Of a stretch of 64,000 nt of DNA, positions 23,255-63,712 are shown piece after piece; position 1 is the first letter of the stretch, and each line of letters starts with the position of its first letter. A program made the position numbers and the translations under genes. This DNA comes from an uncultured bacterium (GTDB lineage: Bacteria > Krumholzibacteriota > Krumholzibacteriia > LZORAL124-64-63), in contig CAIWHK010000049.1 in NCBI GenBank assembly GCA_903912525.1, positions 21,269-85,268 on the forward strand, given 5' to 3'. Below the pieces are notes generated by a model, which worked only from the letters and a program-made list of their open reading frames with translations, searched no databases and was not told the origin of the DNA.

Positions 23255-23261
23255 CTGCCGC

Positions 23262-27018: not shown

Positions 27019-27027
27019 GCCGCTTGC

Positions 27028-27062: not shown

Positions 27063-27108
27063 GTACGCGGTGACGTTCCCGCACCGGCCACCTCGAGTGG
27101 AGGCGGCC

Positions 27109-46680: not shown

Positions 46681-47788
46681 CGACACCCCTCCGCCCGAAC
46701 GCCGCCGCGGCCAGGTGCGCCGCCAGCGAGTCGAGCCACCCCGCATCCTCGTTCAGCGCCGCGCCCCGCGCGAAGCCGTGCAATCCCGCCTTCTCGGCCG
46801 TTTCCTTCAGCTCGACGTCGAGTTCGAGCAGCGTCTCGATGTGCTCGCAGGTGAAGCTGACCGGCTGCACGAACAACCGCTTGCAGCCCGCGCCCGCGAT
46901 ACGCTTCGTCTCGGCCTCGACGTTCGGCTCCAGCCAGCGCACCGGGCCGACCCGGCTCTGGAAGGTGATCGCCGGCTCGGCGCCGCCAGCCATCAGCGCG
47001 CGCATCCACTCGGCGAAGCCCGCTGCGGCAACCGCCGCCGTCACCTTCGCGTGCACCGCCGCCACGGTCGCGCGCGTGCGTTCCTCGTAGCAGTCGCCCC
47101 GCTGGATGAACGAATACGGCAGCGAGTGCGCCACGTAGAGCAGGGCCGAGGTCTTCGGGTCCTCGCCGGCCGCGGCCCAGGCGATGACCTGCGCCGCCGC
47201 CGGGGCGGCCAGCGCCTCGATGAAGCCCGGCAGCAGGTGCCAGTCGGCCATCACGTGCACGGGCGCCGTGGTCGCCATGCGCTTCAGCGAGTCGAGCACG
47301 AAGTCGAGCGTGCTGCCGTTGGTGGCCGCCGAGAACTGCGGGTACATCGGGATCACGATGTACTGCTCGGCCCCGCCGCGCATCAGGCGCGACACGGCCT
47401 CGTCCGGGTACGGCTGCCAGTAGCGCATCGCGATGTCCGGGGTCACGTCGTAGCCGCCCGCGCGCAGCCGCTGGGCCAGCAGTTCGCCCTGCCGGCGCGT
47501 GGTGGCCAGTTGCGGCGTCACCGAGTCGGGGCTGACCATCAGGTACCGCTTGCGCACCTCGGGCGAGCGCTTGCGCGCGATGCCCCAGCCGATGATCGGC
47601 GCCAGCAGCGGCGGCACCGGGAAGATCTGGGGATCGCGGAACAGGTTGCGCAGGAAGGGCTCGACGGCGGTGGGCCCGTCGGGCCCGCCCATGCCCGTCA
47701 GGATCAGGCCGGTACGACGCGCCGGGTCCAGGCGCGTGGCCTGGTACCCGGCGATCTTCCCGGCGAGCGACGAGCGTTTCGAGGCCAT
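46673..47788 (-). CDS. hemH: ferrochelatase
   Basis: 'ILTGMGGPDG', 'PMYPQFS', 'HSLP'. Confidence 0.9.
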   Translation of the reverse strand: MASKRSSLAGKIAGYQATRLDPARRTGLILTGMGGPDGPTAVEPFLRNLFRDPQIFPVPPLLAPIIGWGIARKRSPEVRKRYLMVSPDSVTPQLATTRRQGELLAQRLRAGGYDVTPDIAMRYWQPYPDEAVSRLMRGGAEQYIVIPMYPQFSAATNGSTLDFVLDSLKRMATTAPVHVMADWHLLPGFIEALAAPAAAQVIAWAAAGEDPKTSALLYVAHSLPYSFIQRGDCYEERTRATVAAVHAKVTAAVAAAGFAEWMRALMAGGAEPAITFQSRVGPVRWLEPNVEAETKRIAGAGCKRLFVQPVSFTCEHIETLLELDVELKETAEKAGLHGFARGAALNEDAGWLDSLAAHLAAAAFGRRGVDA

Positions 47789-47789
47789 C

Positions 47790-49166
47790 TCAGACGGTCC
47801 TCGAGAACAGGGGCTTGTCGCCCGCGCCCGCGAGGTAGGCGTCGAAGATCATGGCCACGTTGCGCACGAAGTAGCGGCCCTTGTCGGTGATGTGCAGCCC
47901 GAAGTCGTCCGCCGTGACCAGCCCGTCGGCGACCAGCGGCGGCAGCGCCGCGAGTTCGCCGGCCAGCAGGCGGTCGGCCGGGGCGCCGAAGGCGGCCTCG
48001 GTCAGCTTCCAGGGCAGCTCCAGGTTGCACATCACGTTCAGGATGACCAGGCGCCGCATGCGGTCGTCGTCGTTCAGCTTGTGGCCCTTGACGATGGGCA
48101 GCCTGCCGGCGTCGATGGCCGCGCCCCACGGCTCGAGTTCGGCGTCGTTCTGCACGAAGCGGTCGCAGACGTCGCCGATGCCGCTCATGCCGAAGGCCAG
48201 CATGTGCGGGGCCGGCTTGGTGGCGTAGCCCATGAAGTTGCGGTGCAGCGCGCGGTTCTCGAGCGCCACCGACAACTCGTCGCCCTTCTTGGCGAAGTGG
48301 TCGATGCCGATCCAGGTGTAGTCGGCGTCCTTGAACAGGTCGACCGTCAGCTGGAACAGGGCGAACTTGTCGTAGCCGCCCAGCATGTGCGTCGTGTCGA
48401 CCTTGTTCTGCAGCGGCCGCACCCAGGGCACGTGCGCGTACGAGAAGCAGGCCACGCGGTCGGGCTGCAGGCCGATGATCTCGCCCAGCGTATGCGTGAA
48501 CGACTCGCGCGTCTGGCCGGGCAGGCCATAGACCAGGTCGACGTTGACGCCGGGGAAGCCGGCGTCACGGCAGCCCTGGTACACGTTCAGCGTGCGCTCG
48601 CGGCCCTGCCGGCGGCCGATGGCCACCTGCACGGTCTCCTCGAAATCCTGCACGCCCAGGCTGATGCGGTTGAAGCCGGCCGAGCGCAGGAAGGCCACCT
48701 GCTCGGGCGTGGCGATGCGCGGGTCGATCTCCAGCGAGACCTCGGCGTCGGGCGCCAGGTCGAACGCGCCGCGGAACATCGCCAGGGCGCGGTTCACCTC
48801 GGTCTCACTGAGGTAGTTCGGCGTGCCCCCGCCCCAGTGGAACTGCACCACGCGCCGGTTCGTGCCGATCAGCGCGGTGACCATCGCCAGTTCCTTCTCG
48901 ACGCGGTCGAGATACTCCGTGACGGCGTTCTTCTCGCGCGTGACCAGCGCATTGCAGCCGCAGTAGAAGCAGTGCTTGGCGCAGAAGGGCAGGTGCAGGT
49001 AGATGGCCAGCTCGTCGCCGGGCTTCTGCGCCAGTTCGGCCAGCGCCTCGCGGTACTCGGCGTCGCCGAAAGCCTGCTTCCAGGCCGGCACCGTCGGGTA
49101 GCTCGTGTAGCGCGGCCCGGCGGTATTGTACTTCTCGACGAAGTCGGCCGGTATGTTCAAGGACAT
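47790..49166 (-). CDS. hemN: oxygen-independent coproporphyrinogen III oxidase (radical SAM)
   Basis: 'YLHLPFCAKHCFYCGC', 'GGGTPNYL'. Confidence 0.9.
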   Translation of the reverse strand: MSLNIPADFVEKYNTAGPRYTSYPTVPAWKQAFGDAEYREALAELAQKPGDELAIYLHLPFCAKHCFYCGCNALVTREKNAVTEYLDRVEKELAMVTALIGTNRRVVQFHWGGGTPNYLSETEVNRALAMFRGAFDLAPDAEVSLEIDPRIATPEQVAFLRSAGFNRISLGVQDFEETVQVAIGRRQGRERTLNVYQGCRDAGFPGVNVDLVYGLPGQTRESFTHTLGEIIGLQPDRVACFSYAHVPWVRPLQNKVDTTHMLGGYDKFALFQLTVDLFKDADYTWIGIDHFAKKGDELSVALENRALHRNFMGYATKPAPHMLAFGMSGIGDVCDRFVQNDAELEPWGAAIDAGRLPIVKGHKLNDDDRMRRLVILNVMCNLELPWKLTEAAFGAPADRLLAGELAALPPLVADGLVTADDFGLHITDKGRYFVRNVAMIFDAYLAGAGDKPLFSRTV

Positions 49167-49196
49167 GGTCGTCCGTCCTTACGCTCTGTCGTTCTA

Positions 49197-50234
49197 TCAG
49201 TGACCGCGCCGGAATTCCTGGACCGTACGGACCAGGGTCTCCACCGCGGGGATCGGCGCATGCGGCAGAATGCCGTGCCCCAGGTTGAACACGTGGCCGG
49301 GGGCCTTTTCGCCCTTGCGGCAGATCTCCAGCGCGCGCGAGCGCACCTGCTCGTGCGTGCCGTACAGCACCAGCGGGTCCAGGTTGCCCTGCACGCAGCG
49401 GCCCGGCAGCTCAGTGATGGCGCGCGTCAGGTCCTGCGTCCAGTCCACCCCGAAGCACTCGACGTCCAGGGTCGAGACGAGGTGGTTGTAAGGCGCGCTG
49501 CCCTTCAGGAAATAGATACGGGGCACGCCCGAGTCCTTCAGGCCGTCCATGATGCGGCGCACCACCGGCAGCACGTGCTTCTCGTAGTCGGCCGGGTGCA
49601 GGATGCCGCCCCAGGTGTCGAACAGCTGCACGGCGTCGACGCCGGCCGCGACCTGCATCTTCAGGTAGTCCAGCACCTGGTCGCCCAAAAGATCGAGCAG
49701 CTCCTGCAGCAGGTCGGGCCGCGAGTACAGCATCGTCTTGATATGCTCGTACTCCTTCGATCCGCCGCCCTCGATCAGGTAGCTGGCCAGCGTGAACGGC
49801 GAGCCCGCGAAGCCGATCAACGGCGTCTTGTCGCCCAGTTCCTTCTTCATCAGCTTGATGGCGTCGGCCACGAAGCCGACGCCTTCCAGCGACGGGTAGC
49901 GCTACAGCGAGCGGATGTCGCGCTCGTCGCGCAGCGGCCGCTCCAGCTTGGGGCCGCCGTGCGAGAAGTCGAACGGGGCGCCCATGGCCTCGAGCGGCGT
50001 CAGGATGTCGCTGAACATGATCGCCGCGTCGAAGCCGAACCGCCGGATCGGCTGGATGGTGACCTCGCAGGCCGCCTCGGGCGAACGGCACAGGTCGTTG
50101 AACGAGATCTTCGACCGCACCTCCATGTACTCCGGCAGGTAGCGGCCCGCCTGGCGCATGACCCAAATGGGCGTACGGTCGCACGGCTCGCCGCGCAGGT
50201 TCTTCAGGAAGATGCAGTCCTTGAGGTCGGCCAT
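49197..50234 (-). pseudogene. hemE: uroporphyrinogen decarboxylase hemE interrupted by a single in-frame TAG (49902-49904)
   Basis: The two same-frame ORFs (49902-50234 and 49197-49901) together give a full 345-aa UroD ('[12 protein letters not shown]...IGFAGSPFTLASY...') with TAG between '...RDIRSL' and 'RYPSLEGVGFV...'. Confidence 0.7.
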
Positions 50235-50239
50235 GCGCG

Positions 50240-51526
50240 TCAGCTCCAGCTCTTGAAGGTGTCGGCCACGGCACTCACCGTGGCGTCGATGTCGGCGTCG
50301 GTATGCGCCGCGCTCACGAACCCGACTTCCCAGCCCGACGGGGCCAGGTAGATGCCGCGGTCGATCAGGTCGCGGTGCAGACGTCCGTAGATGGGCATCT
50401 TCGAGCCGTCGACGGCCGCGACCGCGCGCGGCGCCTCGGGCTGGAACACGCACCAGAACAGCGAGCCCTGCCGGGCCAGGCTGGCGGTGATGCCGGCGTC
50501 GGCCGCGGCCTTCTTCAGGCCCGCCTCGAGCCGGGCGCCCTTGCGCTCGAGGTCCTCGTAGAAGCCGGGGCGGCCCGTCTTCTCCAGGGTCACGAGTCCC
50601 GCGGCCATCGCAACCGGGTTGCCGCTCAGCGTGCCGGCCTGGTAGACCGAGCCCAGCGGCGAGACGTGCGCCATGATGTCCCGGCGCGTGGCGTAGGCGC
50701 CCACGGGGAAGCCGCCGCCGATGATCTTGCCGTAGGTGCCCATGTCCGGCGTGATGCCGAGCAACTCGGCCGCGCCGCTGCGCGCCACGCGGAAGCCGGT
50801 GATGACCTCGTCAAAGATCAGAAGCGCGCCGTGTTTCGTCGTCAGGTCGCGGCAGGCCTTCATGAACGCGGCAGTCTGGATGAGCAGGCCGCTGTTGGCC
50901 GGCACCGGCTCGATGATGAGCGCGGCCACCTCGCTGCCGCGCGCGGCGAAGAACGCTTCCAGCTTCTCGACGTCGTCCAGGGGCAGCACGACCGTGGTGT
51001 CGCTGAAGCCCTTGGGGACGCCGGCGCTGCTGGGCGTGCCGAACGTGGCCAGGCCGCTGCCCGCTTCCACGAGCAGGCTGTCGGTGTGGCCGTGGTAGCA
51101 GCCGCTGAACTTGACGGTGATGTCACGGCCCGTGAAGCCGCGAGCCAGGCGGATTGCGCTCATCACGGCCTCGGTGCCGCTGCTGACGAAGCGCACCTGG
51201 TCGAAGTGCGGCATGCGGGCCAGGAAGGCCTCGGCCAACAGCACCTCGCGGCGGCTGGGCGCGCCGAACGACGCGCCCTCGTTCATCGCCTCGAGCGCCG
51301 CGGCGTGCACCTCGGCGTCGGCGTGGCCCAGGATGAGCGGGCCCCAGCTCAGGCACCAGTCGATGTACGACTTCCCGTCCTCGTCGGTGAAGCGGCAGCC
51401 CTTCGCCGACTTGAAGAACAGGGGATCGCCCGGCACCGACTTGAACGACCGCACCGGGCTGTTGACGCCGCCGGGCATGACCTTCTGCGCCCGCTCCCAC
51501 CAGTTCGCGTTGCTCACTTGAGCCAT
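50240..51526 (-). CDS. hemL: glutamate-1-semialdehyde 2,1-aminomutase
   Basis: '[10 protein letters not shown]', '[10 protein letters not shown]' with the PLP lysine context. Confidence 0.9.
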
Positions 51527-52497
51527 CCCTTCGAGAGTGCGTCGCGGCCGTGGTAGGTGATGATCAGGTCCGAGCCGGCGCGGCGCATGGCCAGCAGGTT
51601 CTCGCGCACGATCAGCGCCTCGTTCACCCAGCCGGCGGCAGCCGCGGCCTTCACCAGCGAGTACTCGCCCGACACGTTGTAGCAGACCACGGGGATGAGC
51701 ACCTCGTCGCGCACGCGGCGGATGATGTCCAGGTAGGCCAGCGCGGGCTTGACCATCACCATGTCGGCGCCCTCGTCCACGTCCAGCAGCGCCTCGAGCA
51801 CGCCTTCGCGGCCGTTGCGCACGTCCATCTGGTAGCTCTTGCGGTCGCCCTGCGGCGCGCTGTCGCAGGCGTCGCGGAACGGGCCGTAGTAGGCGCTGGC
51901 GTACTTGGCGCTGTAGGCCAGGATCGCCGTGTCGGTGTAGCCCTCTTCGTCCATCAGCATGCGCATGGCGCCGACGCGGCCGTCCATCATGTCCGAGGGG
52001 CTGACGATGTCGGCGCCGTTGCGGGCGTGGGCCAGGGCCATCTCGGCCAGCTGTTCGACGCTGGCGTCGTTGACAACCTTGCCGTTCTCCAGGAAGCCGC
52101 AGTGGCCGTGGCTGGTGTAGGCGCACAGGCAGACGTCGGTGATGGTGATGATGTCCTGGCCGAACTGCTTCTTCAGCTCGCGCAGGGCGCGCGCCACGAC
52201 CGAGTCGTCGCCCAGCGCCGTGGAGCCGGTGGCGTCCTTCTTGTCGGGGATGCCGAACAGCAGGTGCGACTTCAGGCCCAGCTCGAGGTCAGCGGCCACT
52301 TCCTTGACCAGGTTGTCGACCGACACGTGGCCGATGCCGGGCATGCTGGCGATCTCGTCCTTGAATCCGGTGCCTTCGACCACGAAGTGCGGGGTGATCA
52401 GGTGCCGCGCCTCGACGTTGGTCTCGGCGACCATCTCGCGCATGACGGGGGTGGTGCGCAGGCGGCGGGGGCGTTCGAACATCTCCATGGTGTGCAC
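51514..52497 (-). CDS. hemB: porphobilinogen synthase (ALA dehydratase)
   Basis: 'RPRRLRTTPVMREMVAET', 'SPSDMMDGRV', 'MVKPALAYLDII'; GGAG RBS. Confidence 0.9.
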   Translation of the reverse strand: MHTMEMFERPRRLRTTPVMREMVAETNVEARHLITPHFVVEGTGFKDEIASMPGIGHVSVDNLVKEVAADLELGLKSHLLFGIPDKKDATGSTALGDDSVVARALRELKKQFGQDIITITDVCLCAYTSHGHCGFLENGKVVNDASVEQLAEMALAHARNGADIVSPSDMMDGRVGAMRMLMDEEGYTDTAILAYSAKYASAYYGPFRDACDSAPQGDRKSYQMDVRNGREGVLEALLDVDEGADMVMVKPALAYLDIIRRVRDEVLIPVVCYNVSGEYSLVKAAAAAGWVNEALIVRENLLAMRRAGSDLIITYHGRDALSKGWLK

Positions 52498-52511
52498 TCC
52501 GGTCCGAAGGT

Positions 52512-53204
52512 TTACGGGTTCCGGTCCAGGCCGGCGGCCCGGATCATCGCTTCCAGGTCGGGGGTCGCGGCGACCTCCGGTGCGAATCCGGCCTCGCGGG
52601 CAGCAGCCGCGGTGGTGGCGCCGATCGCCACGCATGCCGGTCGTTCGCTCCACGCGGCGGCAAACGCGCGCACCGCGGTGGGGCTGCAGAAGAAGACCAC
52701 GTCGCCCGGCGCCAGCGGCGCGGGCGGCAGTTCGCCCGGGGGCACCGCCGACGTGCGGTACAGCGCCACTTCCAAAACCTTGCAACCGGCCGCGCGCAGC
52801 GATGCGCCCGGCTCGCGCAGGCGCCCTTCGGCGCCCGGCAGCAGCACGCGGCACGGCGCGTCGACGCATTCCAGGAACGCGCGGGCCAGCGCGGCGCCGT
52901 CCGGTTCGTTCACACCCAGCACGTCGTAAAGCCCGACGGCTTCCAGCGCGGCGCGCGTGCCGTCACCCAGGGCGCCGAGCTTAACTCCGTCCGGCAACCC
53001 GTCCCACTCCGCCAGCGAACGTGCGCCCTGCGGCGACGTTACCAGCGCCCAGTCCCAGCGGCCCTCGGGGGCCGGCGCCGCCAGCGTCTCGTAGCGCAGC
53101 AGCGGCAGGTCCAGCACGGCCATGCCCCGCGCGCGCAGCTCCGCCAGCCACGGTGCATTGCCCTGCGCCTCGCGGGTCAGGACGATGCGGCGGCCGGCGT
53201 CCAA
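52512..53204 (-). CDS. hemD: uroporphyrinogen-III synthase
   Basis: About 230 aa HemD-like; TTG start 2 nt after the hemC TAG; N-terminal 'RRIVLTREA'. Confidence 0.65.
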   Translation of the reverse strand: MDAGRRIVLTREAQGNAPWLAELRARGMAVLDLPLLRYETLAAPAPEGRWDWALVTSPQGARSLAEWDGLPDGVKLGALGDGTRAALEAVGLYDVLGVNEPDGAALARAFLECVDAPCRVLLPGAEGRLREPGASLRAAGCKVLEVALYRTSAVPPGELPPAPLAPGDVVFFCSPTAVRAFAAAWSERPACVAIGATTAAAAREAGFAPEVAATPDLEAMIRAAGLDRNP

Positions 53205-53206
53205 GC

Positions 53207-54154
53207 CTACAGCCCCCGGTGTGAGGCGAGCTTCGGCCAGGCCGTCTCGGCCAGAGCGTCGGGATCCGAACCCGTCAGGCTCAAACGCAGCGGAGCGGCA
53301 TCGGCGGCATCCAAAGCGAGGAACGCCTCGAGCTTCCACGCCGACCCGCCGCCGGTGATGTTCACGCCGAACGGCAGCTGGCAGCCGCCCTCGAGCCGGC
53401 ACAGCAGGTTGCGCTCGGCGCGCACCGCGCGCGCGGCCTCGGCGCAGTCGAGTTGCGCGATGGTCCGCTTCCAGATGTCCTCGTCGCGGCACTGCAGCCC
53501 GAGCATGCCCTGCGCGGGCGCCGGCACGAACACCGCGGGATCGAGCGGGCAGGTGTAGAGGTCGCTCAGGTCCAGCTCGAGCCGCTTCAGCCCGGCGCAG
53601 GCCAGCAGGATGGCGTCGTAGCGTCCCTCGCGCAGCCGGTTGACGCGCGTCGGCACGTTGCCGCGCAGGTCGACGATCTGCACGTCGGGCCGCACCAGAC
53701 GCAGCTGCGCCTGCCGACGCGCGGCGCTGGTGCCCACGCGCGGACCATCCTTCAGCGGCAGCGGGTCGCCCGCGGCGCGGCGCGCTTCATCGACCGCTTC
53801 CTTGCGCACCAGCAGCATCTCGCGCGCGTCCTCGCGTCCGACCATCGCCGCCAGCACCAGGCCGTCGGGCATCTCGGTCGCCAGGTCCTTCAGCGAGTGC
53901 ACGGCCAGGTCGACGCGACCGGCCAGCAGCGCATCCTCGAGCTCCTTCGTGAAGAAGCCCTTGCCCTCGAGCTGCGCCAGCGGCACATCGTCGATGCGAT
54001 CGCCCCGCGTCTTGATGATCTCGATCTCGGTCTCGGTGCCCAGCTCGCCGAGCATCCGCTGGATGGTGTGGGCCTGCCAAAGGGCCAGGTCCGAACCGCG
54101 GGTACCGATGCGGCACTTGGGGGCGAAATCGTGAGAGGCGGGCTGCTGGGGCAC
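53207..54154 (-). CDS. hemC: hydroxymethylbilane synthase (porphobilinogen deaminase)
   Basis: 'RIGTRGSDLALWQA', 'IKTRGD', 'AVHSLKD'; GTG start with GGAGGA RBS. Confidence 0.85.
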   Translation of the reverse strand: MPQQPASHDFAPKCRIGTRGSDLALWQAHTIQRMLGELGTETEIEIIKTRGDRIDDVPLAQLEGKGFFTKELEDALLAGRVDLAVHSLKDLATEMPDGLVLAAMVGREDAREMLLVRKEAVDEARRAAGDPLPLKDGPRVGTSAARRQAQLRLVRPDVQIVDLRGNVPTRVNRLREGRYDAILLACAGLKRLELDLSDLYTCPLDPAVFVPAPAQGMLGLQCRDEDIWKRTIAQLDCAEAARAVRAERNLLCRLEGGCQLPFGVNITGGGSAWKLEAFLALDAADAAPLRLSLTGSDPDALAETAWPKLASHRGL

Positions 54155-54225
54155 GTCGGGTCCTCCGGGGTGGGCCGCTGCGCGGGTGGGAATTTTGACA
54201 AATATAATGGATACAGGGTTGGGGG

Positions 54226-54252
54226 CCAGCTTAGCCCCCTTTTTGGCGCCCG
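54226..54252 (+). terminator. plus-strand intrinsic-terminator-like hairpin (GGGGGC-cagctta-GCCCCC + TTTTTGG) with no annotated plus-strand gene upstream
   Basis: Read directly; a TTGACAaaTATAAT motif lies about 15 nt upstream. Confidence 0.35.
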
Positions 54253-54501
54253 ACAGCGACCGCGCCGGGTGCAAAAATCGGATCACAAAAGCGAAAATGA
54301 ACTAATTTTTGAACAAATATGCGCCCGGGGTTTGCAACCGCACCCGGACGGGGCCGCACCCGCCGGGAAAGGTCGTGAAAACCGGCAACCCAGGTGTGTT
54401 CGGGCCTCCATTTCCCCTATACTCATCCTGATCATGCTTCTTCGACTTCCCGCCCGACGATCGGGGAGCGAAGCGCATGCCTATGTCGCAAAGGGGGAGC
54501 G

Positions 54502-57500
54502 ATGAAGCGCCTGCCGTATCACGTGGCCAGGGGTGCGCTGCTGTTGCTGGTAACCTGCAGCGCCGCCGCAGGGGCGCCATCCGCCGCGCGCGTACCGTCA
54601 TCGGGACAGCACCTGTACTACGGCGCCGCCGCCACCGCCAAGGCGACCGGCGACACCGTCGACCTGATGGGCCCGGGCGCCGCCTTCCCGTACCGGGGTG
54701 ATTTCGAGACCGCGCAGGCGCGGCCCGCTGCCGCGGGTGCGTTGCCGGATGGCTGGACCTCGATCGACCAGACCTCCCCGGCGAACCACTGGCATGTCGA
54801 CAGCTACGGCAACCCGTTCGGGGGCGCGGCGGCCTGGTGCGGCGCGCTGGCCTTGGCGTACTGCGGCGGCGAGGATCCCGAAAGCGGCTACGCCAACGAC
54901 TGGCGCGACATCCTCGAGTTCCGCAAGACGGTCGGCGGGGCCGCCTCGGTGCGCGTGCAGGCCGACCTCCAGTACGACTGCGAACCCGGCTACGACTTCA
55001 CGACGCTGCAGCGTCGCACCGCGGCGCAACCCCTGTTCGAACCCGTTGCCGGCGGCCAGGGCCTGTCGTGGGACGGCGTCGGCACGGTGGCGGTGGACTA
55101 CACGTTCACCTACGCGCCGGCCGAACTGGTGGGCGGCGCCGACATCGCCATCGCCTTCGTGTTCGATTCGGACAACACCTGGTCCGACGGCGACTGCAAC
55201 TGGCCCACCGGGGGCGCCTGCCGCGTGGACAACATCGTCGTCACCCTGAACGGCGTCGCCTACACCGAGGATTTCTCCGACGGCGAACTGGGCCCCGACT
55301 GGGTCGCGGCGCCGAACGTGGGTGTGGGAAACTTCGCGCGCGTCTGGGGCCAGCTCGGCGACCTCGATGATTGCGCCCAGGACTACACCAAGGTCATCGC
55401 CTTCATCGACGACGGCCTGGTCGTGCCCGGCACCGGAGGCACTATCGGGGAACCCGGCAACGACTACGGACCGCCGGGCGGCTACATCGTCAACAACACC
55501 GGCGGGTTGCTGGGGCCGGCCTACCACCTGGAAAACGTCGTCGATTCACCGATGATGGCATTCCCCGACCAGGCCCGGCGGGGTGTGACCCTCGCGTTCG
55601 ACGTCTATCGCCACGAGCTGCTCGCGCCGAACGACAGCCCCGGCATCTTCTACACGTGGAGCATCCGCTCGGGTACTGCGGATTGGTTTGCCCACCTCAG
55701 CTACGGATGGTTCGACCGCAATTTCGTCTACTACGGCGGTCCCTCGTACCAGCGTTCGATCAACGTCGTCGACGACCTGATCGATCCGGACGCGACCCAC
55801 CTGCAGGTGCAGTTCGGCGTCATCGAGCTGGGCTGGCAGTTCGGCTACGGCAACGGCACCAACGGGACGCCGGCGCCGTATTTCGACAACGTCAGTGTCA
55901 AGGTGTACGGGTCCACCGGCCCCCACATCGTCGCGACCGAGATCCGACTGGCGAACGACGGCTTCCCGGCCATCGGCGATGTGGACCTCGTTCACCTTGG
56001 CGCCAACTCGGTGCGCTTCGACATGGCGGCGAACATCTCCGCGAGGACGCACCTGCGCAACGATCCCGGCGACAGCATCTGGATCGACGTGACGGCGCGT
56101 GCCGGTGGCCAGTTGGTGGGCCCACCGGTCATGTACTGGACGTTCGCGAGGAAGAACCCGCTGTTCAATCCGTATCGTTCGCTGCCGGCGAACCCGGTGG
56201 TGGGCAACGTGACCCGCAACGCGGCCGGCGTCACCGTCGCCAATCGCTACAACTTCGACCTGCCCGACACCGGCATGCTCTTCCCGGGCGACGTCCTGCA
56301 ATACTACTTCGCGTCCACCGACCAGGTCGGCGCCGACATCCGCACGGCGTTTGTCCCGGCGGACCGCAGCGGACTGGGCAATCCGTACCCGCACCAGAAC
56401 CTGTCGTCGCCCTACCAGCCTGCCTACCCGGGCGCGTTCACCGTCCGGTGCCTGCCGTCGGTGCAGGACGCCACGGGGTACCAGCCGTCCGTCCTGTTCT
56501 GGAACGACACCGGCTTCCGCGGCGACGAGGAGCGCTGGCACTCCGCCTTCATGTACCTGTGCTACAGGGCCGGCAGCGAATACGACCTGTTCACCACCCA
56601 CGGACCGACGTCCGGCGTCGGCAACGGCCTCGGCGGCCGGGCCACCGCGGCGCAGCTCGACGGCTACAGCGACATGCTGTACTCGTCGGGAGACCTGGGC
56701 ACCGCGACGCTGTCCAACGGCGACTTCAGCGGCGACCCGGGCAACGACCTGGCGCTGTTGAACAACTGGTTCGCGGTCGGTGGCCGGGACCTGTTCATGA
56801 CCGGCGATGACCTGGCGACCAGCCTCGCCGCGGCGGGAAGCGCGGGCACCACGTTCCTCGAGACCCGCATGGGGCTGGTGGTCAACGACGGCGACGTCCG
56901 CGACAACATCGGCGGGCAGGTGGCGCCCCTGGTCGTCAAGATGTCGGGCAATCCGGTGTTCGCCACCGCGGTGTCATGGACCGCCTACGGCGGCTGCCTG
57001 AACATCAACGACTTCGACAACGTCACGCCGCGGCCGGGAGCGGTGCGGTTGGCCCAGTTCACGTCGCCGGACGGCGTGTCCGCGCCCTACCCGTACGCGG
57101 CGGCCACGTTGAACGTCAACGGCGGCAATCGCGTCGTGTCGATGGATCACGACTTCAGGTATGTCACCGAGCCGGACAAGAGCCCGGTGCCCATTCCGGC
57201 CCGGGTCAAGATCCTCAGCAACGTGCTCGACTACTTCTGGGTGGCGAACAACCTGAGCGATTGCTTGGGCGATGCGCCCCCGGCCGCCGATGACCGTTTT
57301 GCCGTGACCAGCTACCCGAACCCGTTCAACCCGTCGGTCACGCTGCGCTACACGTTGCAGGCGCCAGGTCTGGTCACCATGAAGGTGTTCGACATGCGCG
57401 GCGCGCTGGTGCGCACGCTGCTCGACGGGCCCGTCGACCAGCCGAGCGGGGCGGTCACGTGGAACGGGCGCAGCGACGCGGGGGCGCAGGCGGCGTCTGG

Positions 57501-57567
57501 GCTGTACTTCGTGGAGACGCGCGCCGGCGACGAGGTGGACGTGCGCAAGGTGACGATGCTGAAGTGA
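54502..57567 (+). CDS. large secreted T9SS cargo protein, paralog 1 (unknown Cys-containing N-terminal module, no HExxH)
   Basis: Signal peptide; 1021 aa; C-terminal 'YPNPFNPSVTLRYTL...GLYFVETRAGDEVDVRKVTMLK'; GGGGGAG RBS. Confidence 0.8.
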   Translation: MKRLPYHVARGALLLLVTCSAAAGAPSAARVPSSGQHLYYGAAATAKATGDTVDLMGPGAAFPYRGDFETAQARPAAAGALPDGWTSIDQTSPANHWHVDSYGNPFGGAAAWCGALALAYCGGEDPESGYANDWRDILEFRKTVGGAASVRVQADLQYDCEPGYDFTTLQRRTAAQPLFEPVAGGQGLSWDGVGTVAVDYTFTYAPAELVGGADIAIAFVFDSDNTWSDGDCNWPTGGACRVDNIVVTLNGVAYTEDFSDGELGPDWVAAPNVGVGNFARVWGQLGDLDDCAQDYTKVIAFIDDGLVVPGTGGTIGEPGNDYGPPGGYIVNNTGGLLGPAYHLENVVDSPMMAFPDQARRGVTLAFDVYRHELLAPNDSPGIFYTWSIRSGTADWFAHLSYGWFDRNFVYYGGPSYQRSINVVDDLIDPDATHLQVQFGVIELGWQFGYGNGTNGTPAPYFDNVSVKVYGSTGPHIVATEIRLANDGFPAIGDVDLVHLGANSVRFDMAANISARTHLRNDPGDSIWIDVTARAGGQLVGPPVMYWTFARKNPLFNPYRSLPANPVVGNVTRNAAGVTVANRYNFDLPDTGMLFPGDVLQYYFASTDQVGADIRTAFVPADRSGLGNPYPHQNLSSPYQPAYPGAFTVRCLPSVQDATGYQPSVLFWNDTGFRGDEERWHSAFMYLCYRAGSEYDLFTTHGPTSGVGNGLGGRATAAQLDGYSDMLYSSGDLGTATLSNGDFSGDPGNDLALLNNWFAVGGRDLFMTGDDLATSLAAAGSAGTTFLETRMGLVVNDGDVRDNIGGQVAPLVVKMSGNPVFATAVSWTAYGGCLNINDFDNVTPRPGAVRLAQFTSPDGVSAPYPYAAATLNVNGGNRVVSMDHDFRYVTEPDKSPVPIPARVKILSNVLDYFWVANNLSDCLGDAPPAADDRFAVTSYPNPFNPSVTLRYTLQAPGLVTMKVFDMRGALVRTLLDGPVDQPSGAVTWNGRSDAGAQAASGLYFVETRAGDEVDVRKVTMLK

Positions 57568-57635
57568 CGCGAGAGGGCGGACAGCAAAGCCTGACGCGGC
57601 GATGGCCTGAACTGTCAATGGGGGAGATGGACGTC

Positions 57636-60600
57636 ATGACCACATTGCGCCATTCGGGTGCCCTGATGCTGGCGATCGCGGTGTTGATGGCTGCCGCGGT
57701 TGCGCACGCCAGCGCCGCCGCGGGACGGTCGTTGGCGGGAGTGTCCGCGCGGGAGTGGACGCCGACCAGCACGGTCCCGGTCACCACGTACGGCGGCGGC
57801 GCCGGCAAGGCCGTGGTCGACACCGTCACCCTGATGGGGCCGGGAGGCGTCTACCCGTATCGCGGCGACTTCGAGACGGTCAGTCCCCGCCCCGCAGCCG
57901 AAGGCCGCCTGGCCGACGGTTGGACCTCGATCGACTACACATCCCCGATCAACGGCTGGCACGTCGATACCTATCGCAACCCGTTCACGGGCAAGGCCGC
58001 CTGGTGTGGAGACCTGGCGATCGCGTCGTGCGGTTCCGACCCGGCCGGCGGCTACGGCAACAACTGGTACGGCATGCTCGAGTTCCGCAAGACGGTTGGC
58101 GCGGCTCCGGCCACCGTGCGTGTGCAGGCCAACGTGCAGTACGACTGCGAGCCGGCCTACGACTACCTGATGCTGCAACGGCGCACGGCCGCCGCTCCCG
58201 CCTTCGAGCCCGTCGCCACGGGCCAGGGCTTGTCTTGGGACGGCATCGGCACCACCGCCGTCGACTACACCTTCATGTGGACGGCCGCCGAACTGCTGGG
58301 CGGCACCGACATCGCCGTGGCTTTCGTGTTCGATGCGGATGGAGGCTGGTCGGACGCGGACTGCAGTTACCCGTCGGACGGCGCCGCGCGGGTGGACGAC
58401 GTCATCGTCACGGTCAACGGGACGGCGACCTACAGCGAAGATTTCGAGGATGGCGCCCTCGGGCCCGACTGGGCGGCGACGCCGAACCAGGGCGTCGGCG
58501 ACTACGCGCGGGTGTGGGACTCCGCGGGCGATCTGGACGACTGCGCCGCCAACTACTCGCGGCTCGTCGCGTTCCTGGACGACGGACTGGTCGTGCCCGG
58601 TACCGGAGGCACCCGGGGCACCACCGGCATGGACTACGGCCCGGGCGGCTGGGTCGTCAACGGGCGGGGCGGGATGCTGGGCTACAACAACGGCCTGGAC
58701 AACAGCATCCTGTCGCCGGTGATGGACCTGCCGGATCCGACCGCCGGCGGCCTGACGCTGGCCTTCGACGTCTACCGGCACGAGACATATTCAACGTCGT
58801 CCGCCGGCGTCTTCTACACCTGGGATATCCGCTCGACAGAGGGCGGCGACATCACCCAGGCCGCGTGGGTCAACCGCAACTTCGTCTATTACGGCGGCCC
58901 GGCCTGGGTGCGCGCGGTCAACCAGGCGGATGACCTGCTCGTCCCAGGGGCCACGCAGGCGCAGGTGCGCCTGAGCGCGATGCAGTTCAACTGGTTCTTC
59001 TGCTACGGTTGCGGCTGGGGCATCCCCACCCCGGCGCCGTACTTCGACAATGTCAACGTGAAGGCGTACCGCGGCACGGGGCCGCGCATCGTGGTCACCG
59101 ACATCCGTCTGGCCAGCGACGTGTTCCCGGCCTCGGGCGCGCTGGACCTGGCCAATCTCGCCGCGAACTCCTGCCGCTTCGACATGGCTGCGAACATCTC
59201 GCTCAAGACGCACAATCGCAACGACCCGGGCGACTCGATCTGGATCGAAGCGACGCCGCGTTCGGGCGGCACCCTGTCCACGCCGGTCATGCACTGGAAG
59301 TTCGCGAACAAGAACCCGTTGTTCACCGACGCGCATCGCACGGCCCTGGCCTCTGGCCAGATGGAAGGCAACGTCGCCGGCCGCGTGACCCGCACGGCTA
59401 CCGGGACCATCGTCGCCAACCGCTGGAACTTCGACCTTCCGGACACCGGCATGCTCTTCCCCGGCGACGTGCTGCACTACTACTTCGCCGCGACGGACGT
59501 GGTCGCGGGTGACACGCGCACGTCCACCGCGCCGGCGGACCTCGCCGGCTACGGCAGGCCGAATCCGCTGACCTATCCTGCCGTCTTCACGGTCAACTGC
59601 CTGCCGAGCGTATCCGACGCACAAGGCACGCAACCCACCATCCTCCTGTGGAACGATGCGGGCAACCGCGGCAACGATGACGAATGGAATACGGCCCTGC
59701 AGTTGCTTTGCCAGGTCGGCGGCCTCGACTACGACGTCTTCAACACCCACGGCGCGGCTTCCGGCGTCGGCAACGGCCTGGGCGGCCGCGCTACCGTGTC
59801 CCAGATCACGGGCTATGCCGACATGCTCTACACCTGCGGCGACCTGGGCGCCTTCACCCTCTCGAACGGCGACTACAACGTCGATGCGGGCAACGACCTG
59901 GGCCTGCTGGAGGCGTGGCTCGGGCTCGGCACTCGCGACCTCTTCGCGGCCGGCGACGACCTGGCGGCGAGTCTCTACGCGAGCGGCACCGCCGGGCGCG
60001 ACTTCCTGGCGAACCGCCTGGGTGCGGCCTATGTCGACGGTGACGTCCGCGACAACATCGACGGGCAGGATCAACCCCGGGTCGTGAGGGTGTCCGGCAA
60101 CCCCGTGTTCACGACCGCCAACGCGTGGACGGTCAACGGCGGTTGCCCGACCTTCAACGACTTCGACTACGTCACGCCGCTGCCCGGCGCCGTCCGGTTG
60201 GCGCAGTTCACGGGCACGGACGGCACGTCGACGCCCTACACCGCGGCGGCGGCCATCCTCAAGGTGAACGGGACCAGTCGCGTCGTCTCCCTGAACCACG
60301 ACCTGTCGTACATCATCGACAACGCCAAGGCCGCGTCACCGCTGCCTTATCGCGCACGGGTGATCAGCAACGTGCTGGACTACTTCCAGGCGATGCTGAA
60401 CTTCGGCGACTGCTACGCCGGCACGCCCCCGTTGCCGGGCGTCCCGGGCAGTTTCGCCGTCACCAGCTACCCGAACCCGTTCAACCCGTCGGTGACGCTG
60501 CACTACTCGCTGCCGAAGCCGGGCCCGGTGACGATGAAGGTCTTCGACGCCCGCGGTACCCTGGTGCGCACGCTGCTCGACGGCCCGGTGGAAACGGCCG

Positions 60601-60722
60601 AGGGCAGTGTCGTCTGGAACGGGACGGACCAGCGCGGCGGTCGCGCGCCGTCGGGCCTTTATTTCGTGGAGACCCGCGCCGGCGACCAGGTGGACGTGCG
60701 CAAGGTGACGATGTTGAAGTGA
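57636..60722 (+). CDS. large secreted T9SS cargo protein, paralog 2 (about 65-70% identical to paralog 1 over the N-terminal module)
   Basis: Same architecture and C-terminal domain 'YPNPFNPSVTLHYSL...GLYFVETRAGDQVDVRKVTMLK'. Confidence 0.8.
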   Translation: MTTLRHSGALMLAIAVLMAAAVAHASAAAGRSLAGVSAREWTPTSTVPVTTYGGGAGKAVVDTVTLMGPGGVYPYRGDFETVSPRPAAEGRLADGWTSIDYTSPINGWHVDTYRNPFTGKAAWCGDLAIASCGSDPAGGYGNNWYGMLEFRKTVGAAPATVRVQANVQYDCEPAYDYLMLQRRTAAAPAFEPVATGQGLSWDGIGTTAVDYTFMWTAAELLGGTDIAVAFVFDADGGWSDADCSYPSDGAARVDDVIVTVNGTATYSEDFEDGALGPDWAATPNQGVGDYARVWDSAGDLDDCAANYSRLVAFLDDGLVVPGTGGTRGTTGMDYGPGGWVVNGRGGMLGYNNGLDNSILSPVMDLPDPTAGGLTLAFDVYRHETYSTSSAGVFYTWDIRSTEGGDITQAAWVNRNFVYYGGPAWVRAVNQADDLLVPGATQAQVRLSAMQFNWFFCYGCGWGIPTPAPYFDNVNVKAYRGTGPRIVVTDIRLASDVFPASGALDLANLAANSCRFDMAANISLKTHNRNDPGDSIWIEATPRSGGTLSTPVMHWKFANKNPLFTDAHRTALASGQMEGNVAGRVTRTATGTIVANRWNFDLPDTGMLFPGDVLHYYFAATDVVAGDTRTSTAPADLAGYGRPNPLTYPAVFTVNCLPSVSDAQGTQPTILLWNDAGNRGNDDEWNTALQLLCQVGGLDYDVFNTHGAASGVGNGLGGRATVSQITGYADMLYTCGDLGAFTLSNGDYNVDAGNDLGLLEAWLGLGTRDLFAAGDDLAASLYASGTAGRDFLANRLGAAYVDGDVRDNIDGQDQPRVVRVSGNPVFTTANAWTVNGGCPTFNDFDYVTPLPGAVRLAQFTGTDGTSTPYTAAAAILKVNGTSRVVSLNHDLSYIIDNAKAASPLPYRARVISNVLDYFQAMLNFGDCYAGTPPLPGVPGSFAVTSYPNPFNPSVTLHYSLPKPGPVTMKVFDARGTLVRTLLDGPVETAEGSVVWNGTDQRGGRAPSGLYFVETRAGDQVDVRKVTMLK

Positions 60723-60752
60723 CGATGCTGAAGTGACGATGCTGAAGTGACC
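60705..60752. repeat. 14-bp tandem repeat (GTGACGATGYTGAA ×3, plus a partial copy) overlapping the stop codon of paralog 2
   Basis: gtgacgatgttgaa / gtgacgatgctgaa / gtgacgatgctgaa / gtgacc, read directly. Confidence 0.6.
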
Positions 60753-60824: not shown

Positions 60825-60860
60825 TGAAAACGGGCCGGGCATCACAGCCCGGCCCGTTCG
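60825..60860 (-). terminator. intrinsic terminator for the M16 peptidase gene (bidirectional hairpin between convergent genes)
   Basis: AACGGGCCGGGC-atcacag-CCCGGCCCGTT; on the minus strand it is followed by UUUUCAC. Confidence 0.55.
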
Positions 60861-60907: not shown

Positions 60908-63712
60908 CTACTTCACCTCGGGCAGCAGCACCACCTTCACCGTGTTGTCCGGCGCCAGCGCCTTGCGCAGCGTGGTCGTGACCAGGTCGTTGTTCAGCCC
61001 GTCGATCAGCTCGCCCCGCTTCAGGATCAGGTGCGGGTCGGTGCCCTGGCGCTGGTGGCGGGCCAGTTGGTCCAGCCAGAAGTCGTTGCGCTTGAGGGCC
61101 GTCTCGTCGTCGCGGCGCTGGGTGGCAATGACCTTGTCCAGCGTGGCCTGGTCGACGCCCACTCCGGCGACCTGGACCAACTGCTCCCACACGGCGGCCG
61201 TCAGTTCGTCGACGCGCGCGGGGTCGCAGCCCCAGCTGATCGTCAACTGGGTGTAGCCGAACGGGATCCGGTTCAGGCCGCCGCCGACGCGGACGCCGTA
61301 TGTGCCGCTCTTGTCCTCGCGGATCGCCTCGCGCAGGCGGATGCGCAGGACGTCGATCAACGCCTCCATCGCGTACTGTTCCTCCCAGCTCCAGTTGTGC
61401 TCGCCGAAGGCGTCGATCTCGACCATTGCCTTGGGTTCGGTGCCGCGGTGCAGCGTGCGCTCGCGCTTGCCGTGCGGGATGGGCACGCCCTCGTTGCGCC
61501 AGTTCTCGCTGCGGCCGTTCCCGGGCAGGTTGCCCAGCCACGTGCAGACCAGCGGCTCGGCCTTGGCCAGGTCGATGGCGCCCACCAGGAAGAACGTGAA
61601 GTCGCTGCAATCGCCGAAGCGGTCACGGTAGAAGGCCACCGAACCGGCCAGGTCGAGTTTGTCCAGGTCCTCGACGCGCGGCGGCTGCCGGCGCGGGTGT
61701 CCGCCCGTGATCATCGTCGTGACGCTGTCGCGGAACGCCGATTCGGGGTCCGCGGCGCGATTCTGCAGGAACGAGCGCTGCCGCTCAAGCAGCGACTTGA
61801 AGGCCGTGGCGTCCTCGCGCGGCGCCGTGACCAGCAGGTACGTCATCTGCATCAGCGTCTCGAGGTCCTGCGGCGATGCGTTGCCGCGCAGTCCTTCCTC
61901 GTAGCTGGAGATGTACGGCGACACGCGCACCAGCTTGCCGGCCAGCTTCTTCTGCAGGGCATTGGCGTCGAAGGCTCCGGCGCCGCTGCTGGCGACGATG
62001 CTCGCCCCCGACGTCACGCGGTCGTACTGCTCGTCGTCCAGCACCAGCGACGAGCCGCCGGGGCTGGTGGCCCACATCAGGATCTCGTCGTTCTTGAAGT
62101 CGGTGGGCTTCAGGACCACACGCACGCCGTTGGCCAGCGTCCAGGTCGTCGTGCCCAGTTCCGCGTCGCTTTCGCGCTTCGTGATCGCCACGGGCGCGGG
62201 CTGCTTCGGCACCAGCGGGGCGTCCACCGTGGCGTCGACATAGGCGGGAATGGTGCGCGCGGTGACGTCCTTCATGATCGCCGTCAGCGCCGCTTCGTCG
62301 GGGATGATCAGGCCTTCGCGTTGCGGGGCGTCGACGGTGACCACCCGGCTGCCCTTGTCGACCATCTCGCGCAGGCGCGACTCGACCTCGGGCAGGCCGA
62401 TGCCCGGCAGCAGGTCGCGGGCCAGCGCCAGCCGCTGCGTGGCGTCGGCGTAGGGCGTGCCGCGCAGGAAGTGCCCCTGCAGCGAGCGCGCCAGCCGCTG
62501 CGAATCGGTCTTGCCCATCTCGGCGGCCGACTGCTCGGCCTGCCGCAGGATCTCGGACTTGGCGCGGTCGAGCTCACCCTGCGTGAACCCGTGCTGGCGC
62601 GCCCGCTCCAGTTCCGTCAGCAGGGCCTCGAAGCCGCGCGCGACGCCGTCTTCCTTCACCTGGGCCTGCATGGCGAACGAGCCCTTCGTGCGCACCATGC
62701 GGCGGTCCATCGCAAAGGCGCCGCTGAACGGGGGATCGGCCTGCCGCGCCAGTTCGCCGAAGCGGGCGCGCAGCATGGCGTTGGCCAGCGCGCCGCGCAG
62801 GCCGTCGCGGTAGTCGCCCACCGTGGCTTCCGGCCATACCGCGTGCTTGACCTGCAGCGAGATGCCCGTGCCCGAGGCCTCGGGGTCGGTCGTGATCGCG
62901 AACAGCGTCTGGGCATGGTCGGGCACCGCCGGCTGCAGCAGCGGGCGCACCTTCGCCGGGTTCTTCAGCGGCGCGAACCGCTCGCGGATCGCCTTCTCGA
63001 TGGCGGCCGGGTCGAAGTCGCCCACGGCGACGACAGCCATCAGGTTGGGGCGGTACCAGTCGCGGTAGTAGCGGCGCAGCGTTTCGTAGGGCGCGTTGCG
63101 CAGGATCTCGGGATCGCCGATGGTGTTGCGGTCGGCGTACTTCGAGCCGTGGAAAATGACGGGCAGCTGCTTGTCGTACATGCGCTCGTCGGCGCCGCGG
63201 CCCAGCCGCCACTCCTCGATGACGACGCCGCGCTCCTTGTCGATCTCCGCATCCTCGAACGACACCTTGTGGGCCCAGTTCTCCAGGATGCGCAGGCCGG
63301 TGTCCAGCACCTCGGGCTTGTCCGTCGGCACCTGCAGCATGTACACGGTCTCGTTCTGGTTCGTGTACGCGTTGACCTCGGGGCCGAACTGCATGCCGGC
63401 GGACTCCAGGTAGTCGATCAGCGCCTGCTTCGGGAAGTCCTCGGTGCCGTTGAAGCACATGTGCTCGATGAGGTGCGCCAGACCCAGCTGGTCGTCGTCC
63501 TCGTCGACGGCGCCCGCGCCCACCACCAGCCACAGCGCCGCGCGCTGCTCGGGCTTCGCGTTCTGCCGGATGTAGTAGCGCAGGCCATTGGGCAGTGTGC
63601 CCGTGGTGACCGCGGGATCGACGGGCAGGGGGGCCGTCAGTTCGAGGGCCGGCGCCAGGGCGGGCACGAGCAGGATCGTGAACGCCAGCAGGCAGAGCAG
63701 GCGGCGGGTCAT
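60908..63712 (-). CDS. M16 family zinc metallopeptidase (pitrilysin-like, two M16 units), secreted
   Basis: Inverted zinc motif 'HLIEHMCFNG' (HxxEH); signal peptide; 934 aa. Confidence 0.85.
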   Translation of the reverse strand: MTRRLLCLLAFTILLVPALAPALELTAPLPVDPAVTTGTLPNGLRYYIRQNAKPEQRAALWLVVGAGAVDEDDDQLGLAHLIEHMCFNGTEDFPKQALIDYLESAGMQFGPEVNAYTNQNETVYMLQVPTDKPEVLDTGLRILENWAHKVSFEDAEIDKERGVVIEEWRLGRGADERMYDKQLPVIFHGSKYADRNTIGDPEILRNAPYETLRRYYRDWYRPNLMAVVAVGDFDPAAIEKAIRERFAPLKNPAKVRPLLQPAVPDHAQTLFAITTDPEASGTGISLQVKHAVWPEATVGDYRDGLRGALANAMLRARFGELARQADPPFSGAFAMDRRMVRTKGSFAMQAQVKEDGVARGFEALLTELERARQHGFTQGELDRAKSEILRQAEQSAAEMGKTDSQRLARSLQGHFLRGTPYADATQRLALARDLLPGIGLPEVESRLREMVDKGSRVVTVDAPQREGLIIPDEAALTAIMKDVTARTIPAYVDATVDAPLVPKQPAPVAITKRESDAELGTTTWTLANGVRVVLKPTDFKNDEILMWATSPGGSSLVLDDEQYDRVTSGASIVASSGAGAFDANALQKKLAGKLVRVSPYISSYEEGLRGNASPQDLETLMQMTYLLVTAPREDATAFKSLLERQRSFLQNRAADPESAFRDSVTTMITGGHPRRQPPRVEDLDKLDLAGSVAFYRDRFGDCSDFTFFLVGAIDLAKAEPLVCTWLGNLPGNGRSENWRNEGVPIPHGKRERTLHRGTEPKAMVEIDAFGEHNWSWEEQYAMEALIDVLRIRLREAIREDKSGTYGVRVGGGLNRIPFGYTQLTISWGCDPARVDELTAAVWEQLVQVAGVGVDQATLDKVIATQRRDDETALKRNDFWLDQLARHQRQGTDPHLILKRGELIDGLNNDLVTTTLRKALAPDNTVKVVLLPEVK

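Follow-up and report, generated by a model that had tools for sequence, protein, structure and literature searches.

What is encoded by the two long genes that lie head to tail at positions 54502 to 60722 of a 64,000-nucleotide stretch of an uncultured Krumholzibacteriota genome (assembly GCA_903912525.1, contig CAIWHK010000049.1; hereafter the window)? The original prediction, made from the letters alone, took them for tandem paralogous proteins carried as cargo by a type IX secretion system (T9SS), and two long plus-strand open reading frames (ORFs), here named gene A and gene B, were found exactly at these positions. Sequence comparison shows them to be a tandem pair of diverged copies from a multi-copy family that is almost confined to Krumholzibacteriota. 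Their products are probably exported and displayed on the cell surface through the T9SS, to judge from their sequence anatomy. As to function, we lean, at somewhat less than an even chance, towards non-enzymatic surface proteins that bind ligands or glycans, that is, adhesins or glycan-capturing proteins.

54502 to 57567, plus strand: gene A, a T9SS cargo protein of 1021 residues with a signal peptide, four passenger domains (D1, D2, D3 and D4) and a C-terminal domain (CTD), called from its ORF, codon bias and an orthologue.
57636 to 60722, plus strand: gene B, a paralogue of 1028 residues with the same five-domain architecture as gene A.

Both genes show the codon bias of real genes, with a GC content at third codon positions (GC3) of 0.87-0.90 (0.90 in gene A) in a window of 69% GC. 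Their products align over 993 residues with 61% identity and 71% positives (BLASTP, E = 0). An identity of 65-70% had been ascribed to a conserved N-terminal block; this figure stands for the block itself, which corresponds to D1 (residues ~50-252, 68-69% identity), but the similarity is not limited to it and spans the whole length, at 57-69% in the domains of the passenger and 76% in the CTD. Compared with the orthologue, the ratio of nonsynonymous to synonymous substitutions (dN/dS) is 0.24 for gene A and 0.14 for gene B and stays below 0.4 in each domain, values that indicate purifying selection on both genes. Recent gene conversion between A and B was rejected, since the longest identical run is 32 nt. 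A candidate third copy, an ORF of 1027 codons at 21364-24447 on the minus strand, was discarded as a spurious high-GC ORF with a low-complexity Arg/Pro/Gly/Ala translation. The exact sequences of A and B are already public and are labelled 'hypothetical protein' or left unnamed.

The case for secretion rests on the two ends of the proteins.

54502 to 54588, plus strand: signal peptide region of gene A, MKRLPYHVARGALLLLVTCSAAAGAPSAA, with a positively charged N-terminus and then a hydrophobic stretch, as read from the letters.
57304 to 57564, plus strand: CTD of gene A (residues 935-1021), a T9SS type A sorting domain matched by TIGR04183, FlgD_ig and Por_Secre_tail.
60459 to 60719, plus strand: CTD of gene B, matched by TIGR04183.

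Both proteins are predicted to carry an N-terminal Sec signal peptide: in A it covers residues 1-~28, of which residues 7-19 were modelled as a helix with a low predicted local distance difference test (pLDDT) score, and the N-terminus of B, MTTLRHSGALMLAIAVLMAAAVAHASAAA, also reads as signal-peptide-like. At the other end, the last ~85 residues are the sole part of A and B with a match in Pfam, NCBIfam or PDB sequences, namely to the T9SS sorting domain and the related FlgD Ig-like fold. The TIGR04183 scores, 25.5 bits for A and 28.3 bits for B, both reach the curated cut-off of 23, which together with the BLASTP identity upholds the claim of tandem T9SS cargo proteins of about 1000 residues. 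PF18962 and PF13860 match the same residues in both proteins, and the CTD was found in 43-45 of the 45 homologues scanned. It is this anatomy, a Sec signal, a four-domain passenger and a type A CTD, that makes T9SS export and display probable. As had been claimed, two other proteins of the window have a CTD of the same class: a 1507-residue protein with five Calx-beta domains (1517-6040, plus strand) and a 663-residue protein with no other Pfam match (13302-15293, minus strand). At least four putative T9SS cargo genes thereby lie within the 64-kb window, with no T9SS machinery gene there. Our literature search found no paper that ties Krumholzibacteriota to T9SS or describes the A/B family.

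Residues 1-930 of A and B have no Pfam or NCBIfam match, which leaves ~900 of the ~1020 residues without coverage. Pfam scans of 45 full-length homologues, 21 N-terminal fragments and 34 D4 fragments returned the CTD plus isolated sub-threshold matches and nothing else, and PDB profile searches with four family alignments returned FlgD-Ig/CTD matches and one match to STM1381 at E = 0.24. The MAM and InhA-like_MAM families (PF00629 and PF20773) do not match A or B at E ≤ 1 or the N-terminal fragments at E ≤ 10; InhA-like_MAM matches 2 of the 45 homologues weakly (E 0.014). These results agree with the claim of an uncharacterised N-terminal module, in that no sequence family is recognisable there. 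The absence of HExxH or another catalytic motif was likewise borne out: HExxH is missing from A, B and the 45 homologues, no known catalytic motif was recognised in the passenger of A or B, and Peptidase_M6 of Pfam does not match either protein. NF052323, 'T9SS-dependent M6-like inactivated metalloprotease', touches the CTD alone and scores 12.8 bits there, where the cut-off is 600.

An AlphaFold2 model of A was built from a 62-sequence alignment (mean pLDDT 83.9, predicted template modelling score (pTM) 0.73), and D1-D2 at the N-terminus were modelled separately (pLDDT 80.7). The model of A divides into D1, D2, D3, D4 and the CTD, and the passenger domains of both genes were placed as follows, with CBM standing for carbohydrate-binding module.

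54649 to 55257, plus strand: D1 of gene A (residues 50-252), a MAM/CBM-like all-beta jelly roll with C113, C121 and C232.
55258 to 55917, plus strand: D2 of gene A (residues 253-472), a second all-beta jelly roll that starts with DFSDG and ends with YFDNVSVKVY, with C291 and an Arg-His-Glu (RHE) motif (H371/E372).
55918 to 56436, plus strand: D3 of gene A (residues 473-645), a beta-sandwich by the secondary structure of the model.
56437 to 57276, plus strand: D4 of gene A (residues 646-925), an alpha/beta domain of class I glutamine-amidotransferase-like (flavodoxin-like) fold, with the Gly-rich loop GPTSGVGNGLGGR, TGDD and the invariant C832.
About 57816 to 58421, plus strand: D1 of gene B.
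58422 to 59078, plus strand: D2 of gene B.
59079 to 59591, plus strand: D3 of gene B.
59592 to 60431, plus strand: D4 of gene B.

Foldseek was run against PDB with the whole-protein model and with the D1-D2 model. For the N-terminal module it returned the MAM-like helper domain that InhA2 of Bacillus carries (probability ~1.0), the MAM domain of meprin (probability ~1.0, 170-200 columns, root-mean-square deviation 4.8-7.4), the MAM domains of enteropeptidase and RPTPmu, tandem CBM22 (0.98-0.99), the sugar-binding domain of Fbs2 (1.0) and SGBP-B of Bacteroides (0.82), all of which are non-catalytic jelly-roll binding modules. A BFVD search returned generic phage tail proteins with CenC-type CBMs and nothing else. 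A lectin- or MAM-type fold had been anticipated, and the matches to meprin, InhA2 and CBM22 accord with it. The N-terminal ~450 residues had been taken for one module, a view that did not hold: they form two jelly rolls, both opening with a DFE/DFxDG motif and closing with a (V/F)D(D/N)(I/V)xV strand, with no homology between them detectable by hhalign. An internal duplication of D1-D2 was rejected on the same basis (probability <1% for every domain pair). The original prediction had also named a confident match to a well-characterised family, such as M6 InhA, as the result that would speak against it; what emerged goes half of that way, as a likeness in fold to the non-catalytic helper domain of M6 InhA, though neither at family level nor to the catalytic domain.

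Comparison of relatives separates the passenger further. D1 is absent in many of them or swapped for FG-GAP or fn3 regions, and on this ground D2-D4 are the family core and D1 an optional accessory module. In other relatives the C-terminus is extended by FG-GAP, cohesin and dockerin, all of them modules typical of binding and scaffolding outside the cell. The preference for a binding function follows from three points: the fold matches of the N-terminal half are binding modules, D1 is CBM-like and exchangeable, and no catalytic signature was found.

Several observations weigh against this preference. The fold similarities are of a generic kind (E-values of 1e-5 to 1e-7, 9-15% identity). D1 to D4 are evenly conserved, with 20-21% of columns at least 90% conserved in each domain, and in a diversifying adhesin one would expect a variable tip. 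D2 has a conserved Arg-His-Glu together with several Arg and Tyr residues, and in D4 the invariant polar residues D669, D695, R713, N739, D741, D749, D769, Q806, N817, C832, N836 and D839 stand at the C-terminal ends of parallel strands; either of these could mark a catalytic or cofactor site and not simple binding. Finally, no gene for the T9SS machinery (SprA/Sov, PorV, PorU, GldK/L/M/N) was found in the 64-kb window.

These features raise a different explanation, in which the D2-D3-D4 core is an extracellular enzyme of a kind not yet described, such as a glycoside hydrolase (GH), polysaccharide lyase, esterase or amidase. Its active site would lie either in a pocket rich in Asp on D4 or on the concave side of the D2 jelly roll, D1 would be an appended substrate-binding module and the gene arrays a degradative arsenal. 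We consider this somewhat unlikely. With the whole-protein model as query, D4 matched STM3548 (2gk3) with a Foldseek probability of 1.00 and a target TM-score of 0.57 over 293 columns. Sequence gave sub-threshold matches of residues 710-800 to STM1381 (3soz; the E 0.24 match) and of 1 of 45 members to DUF4159 (E 0.053); the D4 profile and members have no PDB match at E ≤ 10 and no relevant Pfam match. In alpha/beta enzymes the C-terminal ends of parallel strands are where the active site is located, and it is at such strand ends that the dense invariant polar and Gly-rich motifs of D4 are found (WND, GNGLGGR, TLSNGD, TGDD, GGQ and YGGCxxINxFD). The elbow position of D4 carries TGDD; judged from the secondary structure of the model, this would be the nucleophile-elbow position of class I amidotransferase-like folds. 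The dispensable, exchangeable D1 beside an ever-present D2-D4 also fits the logic of a CBM plus a catalytic core, and the equal conservation of all domains under purifying selection and the cohesin and dockerin modules of some relatives point in the same direction. On the other side, no profile or fold match to any catalytic domain was obtained, and the nearest structures to D4, STM3548 and STM1381, are themselves of unknown function and have no catalytic triad. A conserved His is missing from D4 (no His column reaches 50% in residues 646-925), hence also a Cys-His-Glu triad, and the N-terminal fold matches are binding modules and not jelly-roll hydrolases or lyases. Uniformly high conservation and the Asp/Asn/Arg/Gly-rich strand-end motifs of D4 are as compatible with an active or cofactor site as with structural Ca2+ sites.

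The multi-domain GH2 matches of the full-length model (Foldseek probability 0.9-0.96) would also favour an enzyme, though their TM-scores are very low, at ~0.15 (0.11-0.16). Membership of GH2 was rejected on these scores, on the predicted D4, which is not an eight-fold beta/alpha (TIM) barrel, and on the lack of a Glyco_hydro_2 Pfam match. PorU was matched with a probability of 0.51-0.57 and a TM-score of 0.09, and the sequence similarity to it is confined to the CTD; with no conserved His before C832, membership of PorU/peptidase C25 was rejected as well. At TM-scores of 0.09-0.16, both the PorU and the GH2 matches look like multi-domain noise in the model comparison. In D3, the segment FDLPDTGxLFPGDVLxYYF (residues 585-603) forms the conservation peak of the protein, with a sliding-window value of 0.83 at residues 581-600. 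The DTG within its 'DLPDTG' was dismissed as an aspartic-protease signature, D3 being a beta-sandwich and the Thr not invariant. The boldest version of the enzyme proposal, a new secreted family with Asp rather than Cys-His chemistry on an extracellular amidotransferase-like scaffold, whose exchangeable N-terminal modules and amplification would make a polymer-degrading toolkit private to Krumholzibacteriota, we regard as unlikely.

The cysteines bear on how the passenger is held together. Five are conserved in the family: C113 (WCG), C121 (CGG), C232 (DCN), C291 and C832. The original prediction had singled out the first three correctly, but the fourth that it named, C160 of YDCEP, is not conserved (<20% Cys), and C291 and C832 had been missed. 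Co-occurrence was counted across ~250 homologues. Both C291 and C832 occur in 238, neither in 13 and just one of the two in 5; for C121 and C232 the corresponding counts are 203, 14 and 7. Fisher's test gave p ~1e-17 for each pair, a value inflated by shared ancestry, and the double losses are spread over several different architectures. Because the members of each pair co-occur, two disulfides are likely, C121-C232 inside D1 and C291-C832 linking D2 to D4. Disulfides had been predicted from the paired Cys residues and this much stands, but these pairs differ from the ones then implied. If formed, the two bonds would give the passenger a compact body.

The size and spread of the family were surveyed. 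When 1.84 billion representative proteins were scanned in full, 1182 clusters were obtained at E ≤ 1e-30 (at least 1182 at 50% identity); at weaker E-values the counts are far larger, probably through matches to the CTD alone. Among genomes taken one per GTDB species, relatives are encoded on 232 stretches. Most of the named records are Krumholzibacteriota metagenome-assembled genomes, and the remainder either have no classification or carry the label Fibrobacteraceae or Verrucomicrobia. At least 3-5 copies are present in several genomes, and head-to-tail arrays of two or more copies occur at 30 of 73 loci, at least seven copies being present at one of them. The family is probably one of the main secreted protein families of Krumholzibacteriota. 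The largest array, of at least seven family genes, occupies positions 1-18954 of CAZLUL010000019.1 (locus L036), and head-to-tail arrays of four to five genes were seen at L025, L042, L037 and L050. The spacers in these five arrays measure from a few to ~150 nt, and the expansions are much larger than the A/B pair.

High copy number and tandem arrays would also be expected of coat components, similar to a surface layer (S-layer) or sheath, that are exported by T9SS and self-assemble to protect the envelope, with paralogues as alternative subunits, for example in evasion of phages or predators. The compact body that the putative disulfides would lock agrees with this idea, as does the uniform conservation, which fits lattice contacts over the whole surface. 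The many conserved Asp/Asn/Gly loops could bind Ca2+, typical of S-layers, and in GH42 beta-galactosidases it is amidotransferase-like domains that act in oligomerisation. Nevertheless, no known S-layer protein is among the listed Foldseek matches, and paralogues that are 40-60% identical would be poorly interchangeable lattice subunits. Taken together, a coat role seems quite improbable.

The position of the genes suggests yet another possibility. A near-complete haem-biosynthesis cluster (45175-54286, minus strand) lies divergent from gene A, comprising genes for a protoporphyrinogen oxidase-like protein, ferrochelatase, HemN, HemE, HemL, HemB, HemD and HemC. The array might then be tied to this cluster, for instance by binding haem, porphyrin or iron at the surface in a gingipain-like manner. 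Gene A is 215 nt from the divergent hemC, an adjacency shared by a 93%-identical relative and by a ~52%-identical one that has five copies. Gingipains have MAM-like adhesin domains that are modules of T9SS cargo and have been implicated in acquiring haem, an analogy in favour of the idea. Against it, other family members reside at unrelated loci, downstream of glyQS and in arrays elsewhere, which marks the hem adjacency as lineage-specific synteny. A complete haem synthesis cluster leaves no obvious need to scavenge, and neither a haem-binding motif nor a conserved set of His/Met/Tyr ligands was recognised. A haem-related role is accordingly hard to credit at all.

The synteny itself was traced further. 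The order hemC, A, B, M16 peptidase recurs in the 93%-identical relative, where the A orthologue is 93-94% and the B orthologue 96% identical, and the adjacency of haem cluster and array is kept in relatives with 2 or 5 copies. In the ~52%-identical relative all five copies occupy the same hemC-adjacent site, and four of them share 62-74% identity among themselves, a sign of lineage-specific duplication. A second widely conserved locus has the order glyQS, family member, two ~800-residue lipoproteins and a BNR/Sortilin-like protein with a CTD. It was seen at positions 13329-20643 of L005 (GCA_016712675.1) and at ~16 other glyQ-glyS loci, among them L004, L009, L013, L026, L029 and L038. The lipoproteins there (~780-835 residues) have no Pfam match and are 30% identical to each other at the N-terminus, and the last gene encodes a BNR/Sortilin-Vps10-like protein of ~775 residues with a CTD-like end. 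The proteins of this locus may form a surface complex. The ~800-residue neighbours were considered as family homologues and rejected, not being homologous. Across all family loci, no conserved functional partner was found.

Around and between the two genes, the following smaller features were mapped.

54493 to 54499, plus strand: Shine-Dalgarno-like GGGGGAG 5' of the gene A ATG, read from the sequence.
57568 to 57635, plus strand: spacer of 68 nt between gene A and gene B, with GGGGGAG at 57620-57626.
60705 to 60751, plus strand: 14-nt tandem repeat, 3.4 copies of GTGACGATGCTGAA, with a Tandem Repeats Finder (TRF) score of 87.
60831 to 60851, strand unassigned: GC-rich hairpin lying between gene B and the M16 peptidase gene, whose 3' ends converge; it resembles a terminator on the minus strand and was called from a consensus match only.

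The start of gene B is most likely the ATG at 57636, with GGGGGAG 9 nt upstream; gene callers pick the same start in orthologues. No terminator-like hairpin was found in the 68-nt spacer, and A and B are probably co-transcribed. The GTGACGATGCTGAA unit consists of the last codons of gene B and its stop codon, repeated past the stop, which leaves the protein unaffected. The orthologous locus (L001) has a single copy of the unit, and the repeat probably arose by replication slippage. The M16 peptidase gene (60908-63712, minus strand), convergent to gene B, encodes a 934-residue two-domain insulinase-type peptidase with HxxEH, and its position is kept in the close relative. Within the haem cluster, hemE/URO-D (49200-50234, minus strand) has an in-frame TAG at 49902-49904, where the 98.6%-identical L001 orthologue has GAG (Glu111); the TAG stems either from a nonsense mutation or from a mistake in assembly or sequencing, and the cluster is otherwise intact. 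The rest of the window is housekeeping in content: cytochrome oxidase, SUF, sulfatase and maturase, TonB receptors and the haem cluster. The sulfatase and FGE-type maturase genes stand side by side (24493-26765, minus strand, and 26980-29433, plus strand) adjoining a TonB-dependent receptor gene, which hints at the use of sulfated polymers.

If A and B are binding proteins, as we prefer, the course by which we infer that they are secreted, anchored, cross-linked by disulfides and brought to their ligands would be as follows. The signal peptide would carry them by Sec across the inner membrane, and in the periplasm they would fold into a compact body locked by C121-C232 and C291-C832. The type A CTD of ~85 residues would then direct passage through the T9SS translocon and, by analogy with other type A cargo, would probably be cleaved as the protein is attached to the outer membrane. 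D1 and D2, the MAM/CBM-like jelly rolls, would present the binding surfaces, while D3 and the amidotransferase-like D4 would form the conserved body and possibly act in oligomerisation or as a second binding module. Tandem duplication and divergence, with two copies here, five at the same locus in a relative and at least seven elsewhere, would supply a repertoire of related proteins.

Krumholzibacteriota are uncultured, and next to nothing has been learned of their cell-surface biology. The domain map, the putative disulfides and the list of invariant pocket residues make the family tractable for expression and for screens of binding or activity, and would be grounds for defining new domain families. 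Should A and B prove to be binding or coat proteins, the gain is better annotation; should the core be catalytic, it is a new enzyme family. In calling the pair strong candidates for something new, the original prediction was too generous, since every domain has a known fold.

The closest described systems are the type A CTD cargo proteins of T9SS in the Fibrobacteres-Chlorobi-Bacteroidetes (FCB) group, such as the gingipains and further CTD proteins from Porphyromonas gingivalis and the surface enzymes and adhesins of Cytophaga and Flavobacterium. A and B resemble them in the signal peptide, the ~80-residue beta-sandwich CTD and the large multi-domain passenger. They differ in that the passenger has no sequence match to a described cargo family and in their host, a member of an uncultured phylum. 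With the MAM domains of meprin, RPTPmu and enteropeptidase and the helper domain of InhA2 (PDB 4yu5/4yu6), the N-terminal jelly rolls have in common the fold (Foldseek ~1.0, 170-300 columns), the DFE...GW opening motif and the (V/F)D(D/N)(I/V)xV closing strand. However, identity is 9-15%, A and B match neither MAM nor InhA-like_MAM of Pfam, and the cysteine pattern may differ from the canonical four-cysteine one of MAM, D1 having three conserved Cys (C113, C121 and C232), of which C121 and C232 co-occur. Unlike InhA2, moreover, A and B have no metallopeptidase catalytic domain; theirs are two unrelated jelly rolls at the N-terminus of a non-peptidase protein. CBMs of the CenC, CBM22 and CBM35 types and SGBP-B of Bacteroides belong to the same beta-jelly-roll class, and D1 is an optional appended module like a CBM, but A and B lack a sequence-level relationship to them, no sugar-binding residues were identified, and no glycoside hydrolase, SusC/SusD or polysaccharide utilization locus (PUL) context adjoins the two genes.

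D4 has the same alternating beta-alpha core as the class I glutamine-amidotransferase-like group (STM3548/2gk3 and STM1381/3soz; DUF1355/DUF4159/ThuA), yet it shows no family-level sequence match and lacks the Cys-His-Glu triad. STM3548 and STM1381 are uncharacterised cytoplasmic proteins, whereas D4 is predicted to be extracellular, lying between a beta-sandwich and the CTD and probably disulfide-linked to D2. As far as profile searches tell, A and B are not sequence-level members of the MAM, InhA-like_MAM, M6, GH2, C25 or amidotransferase-like Pfam families. What emerges is an uncharacterised, phylum-restricted family in which every domain has a known fold and no new mechanism is shown. On the strength of the model, A and B would work like other T9SS cargo proteins with MAM/CBM-like modules.

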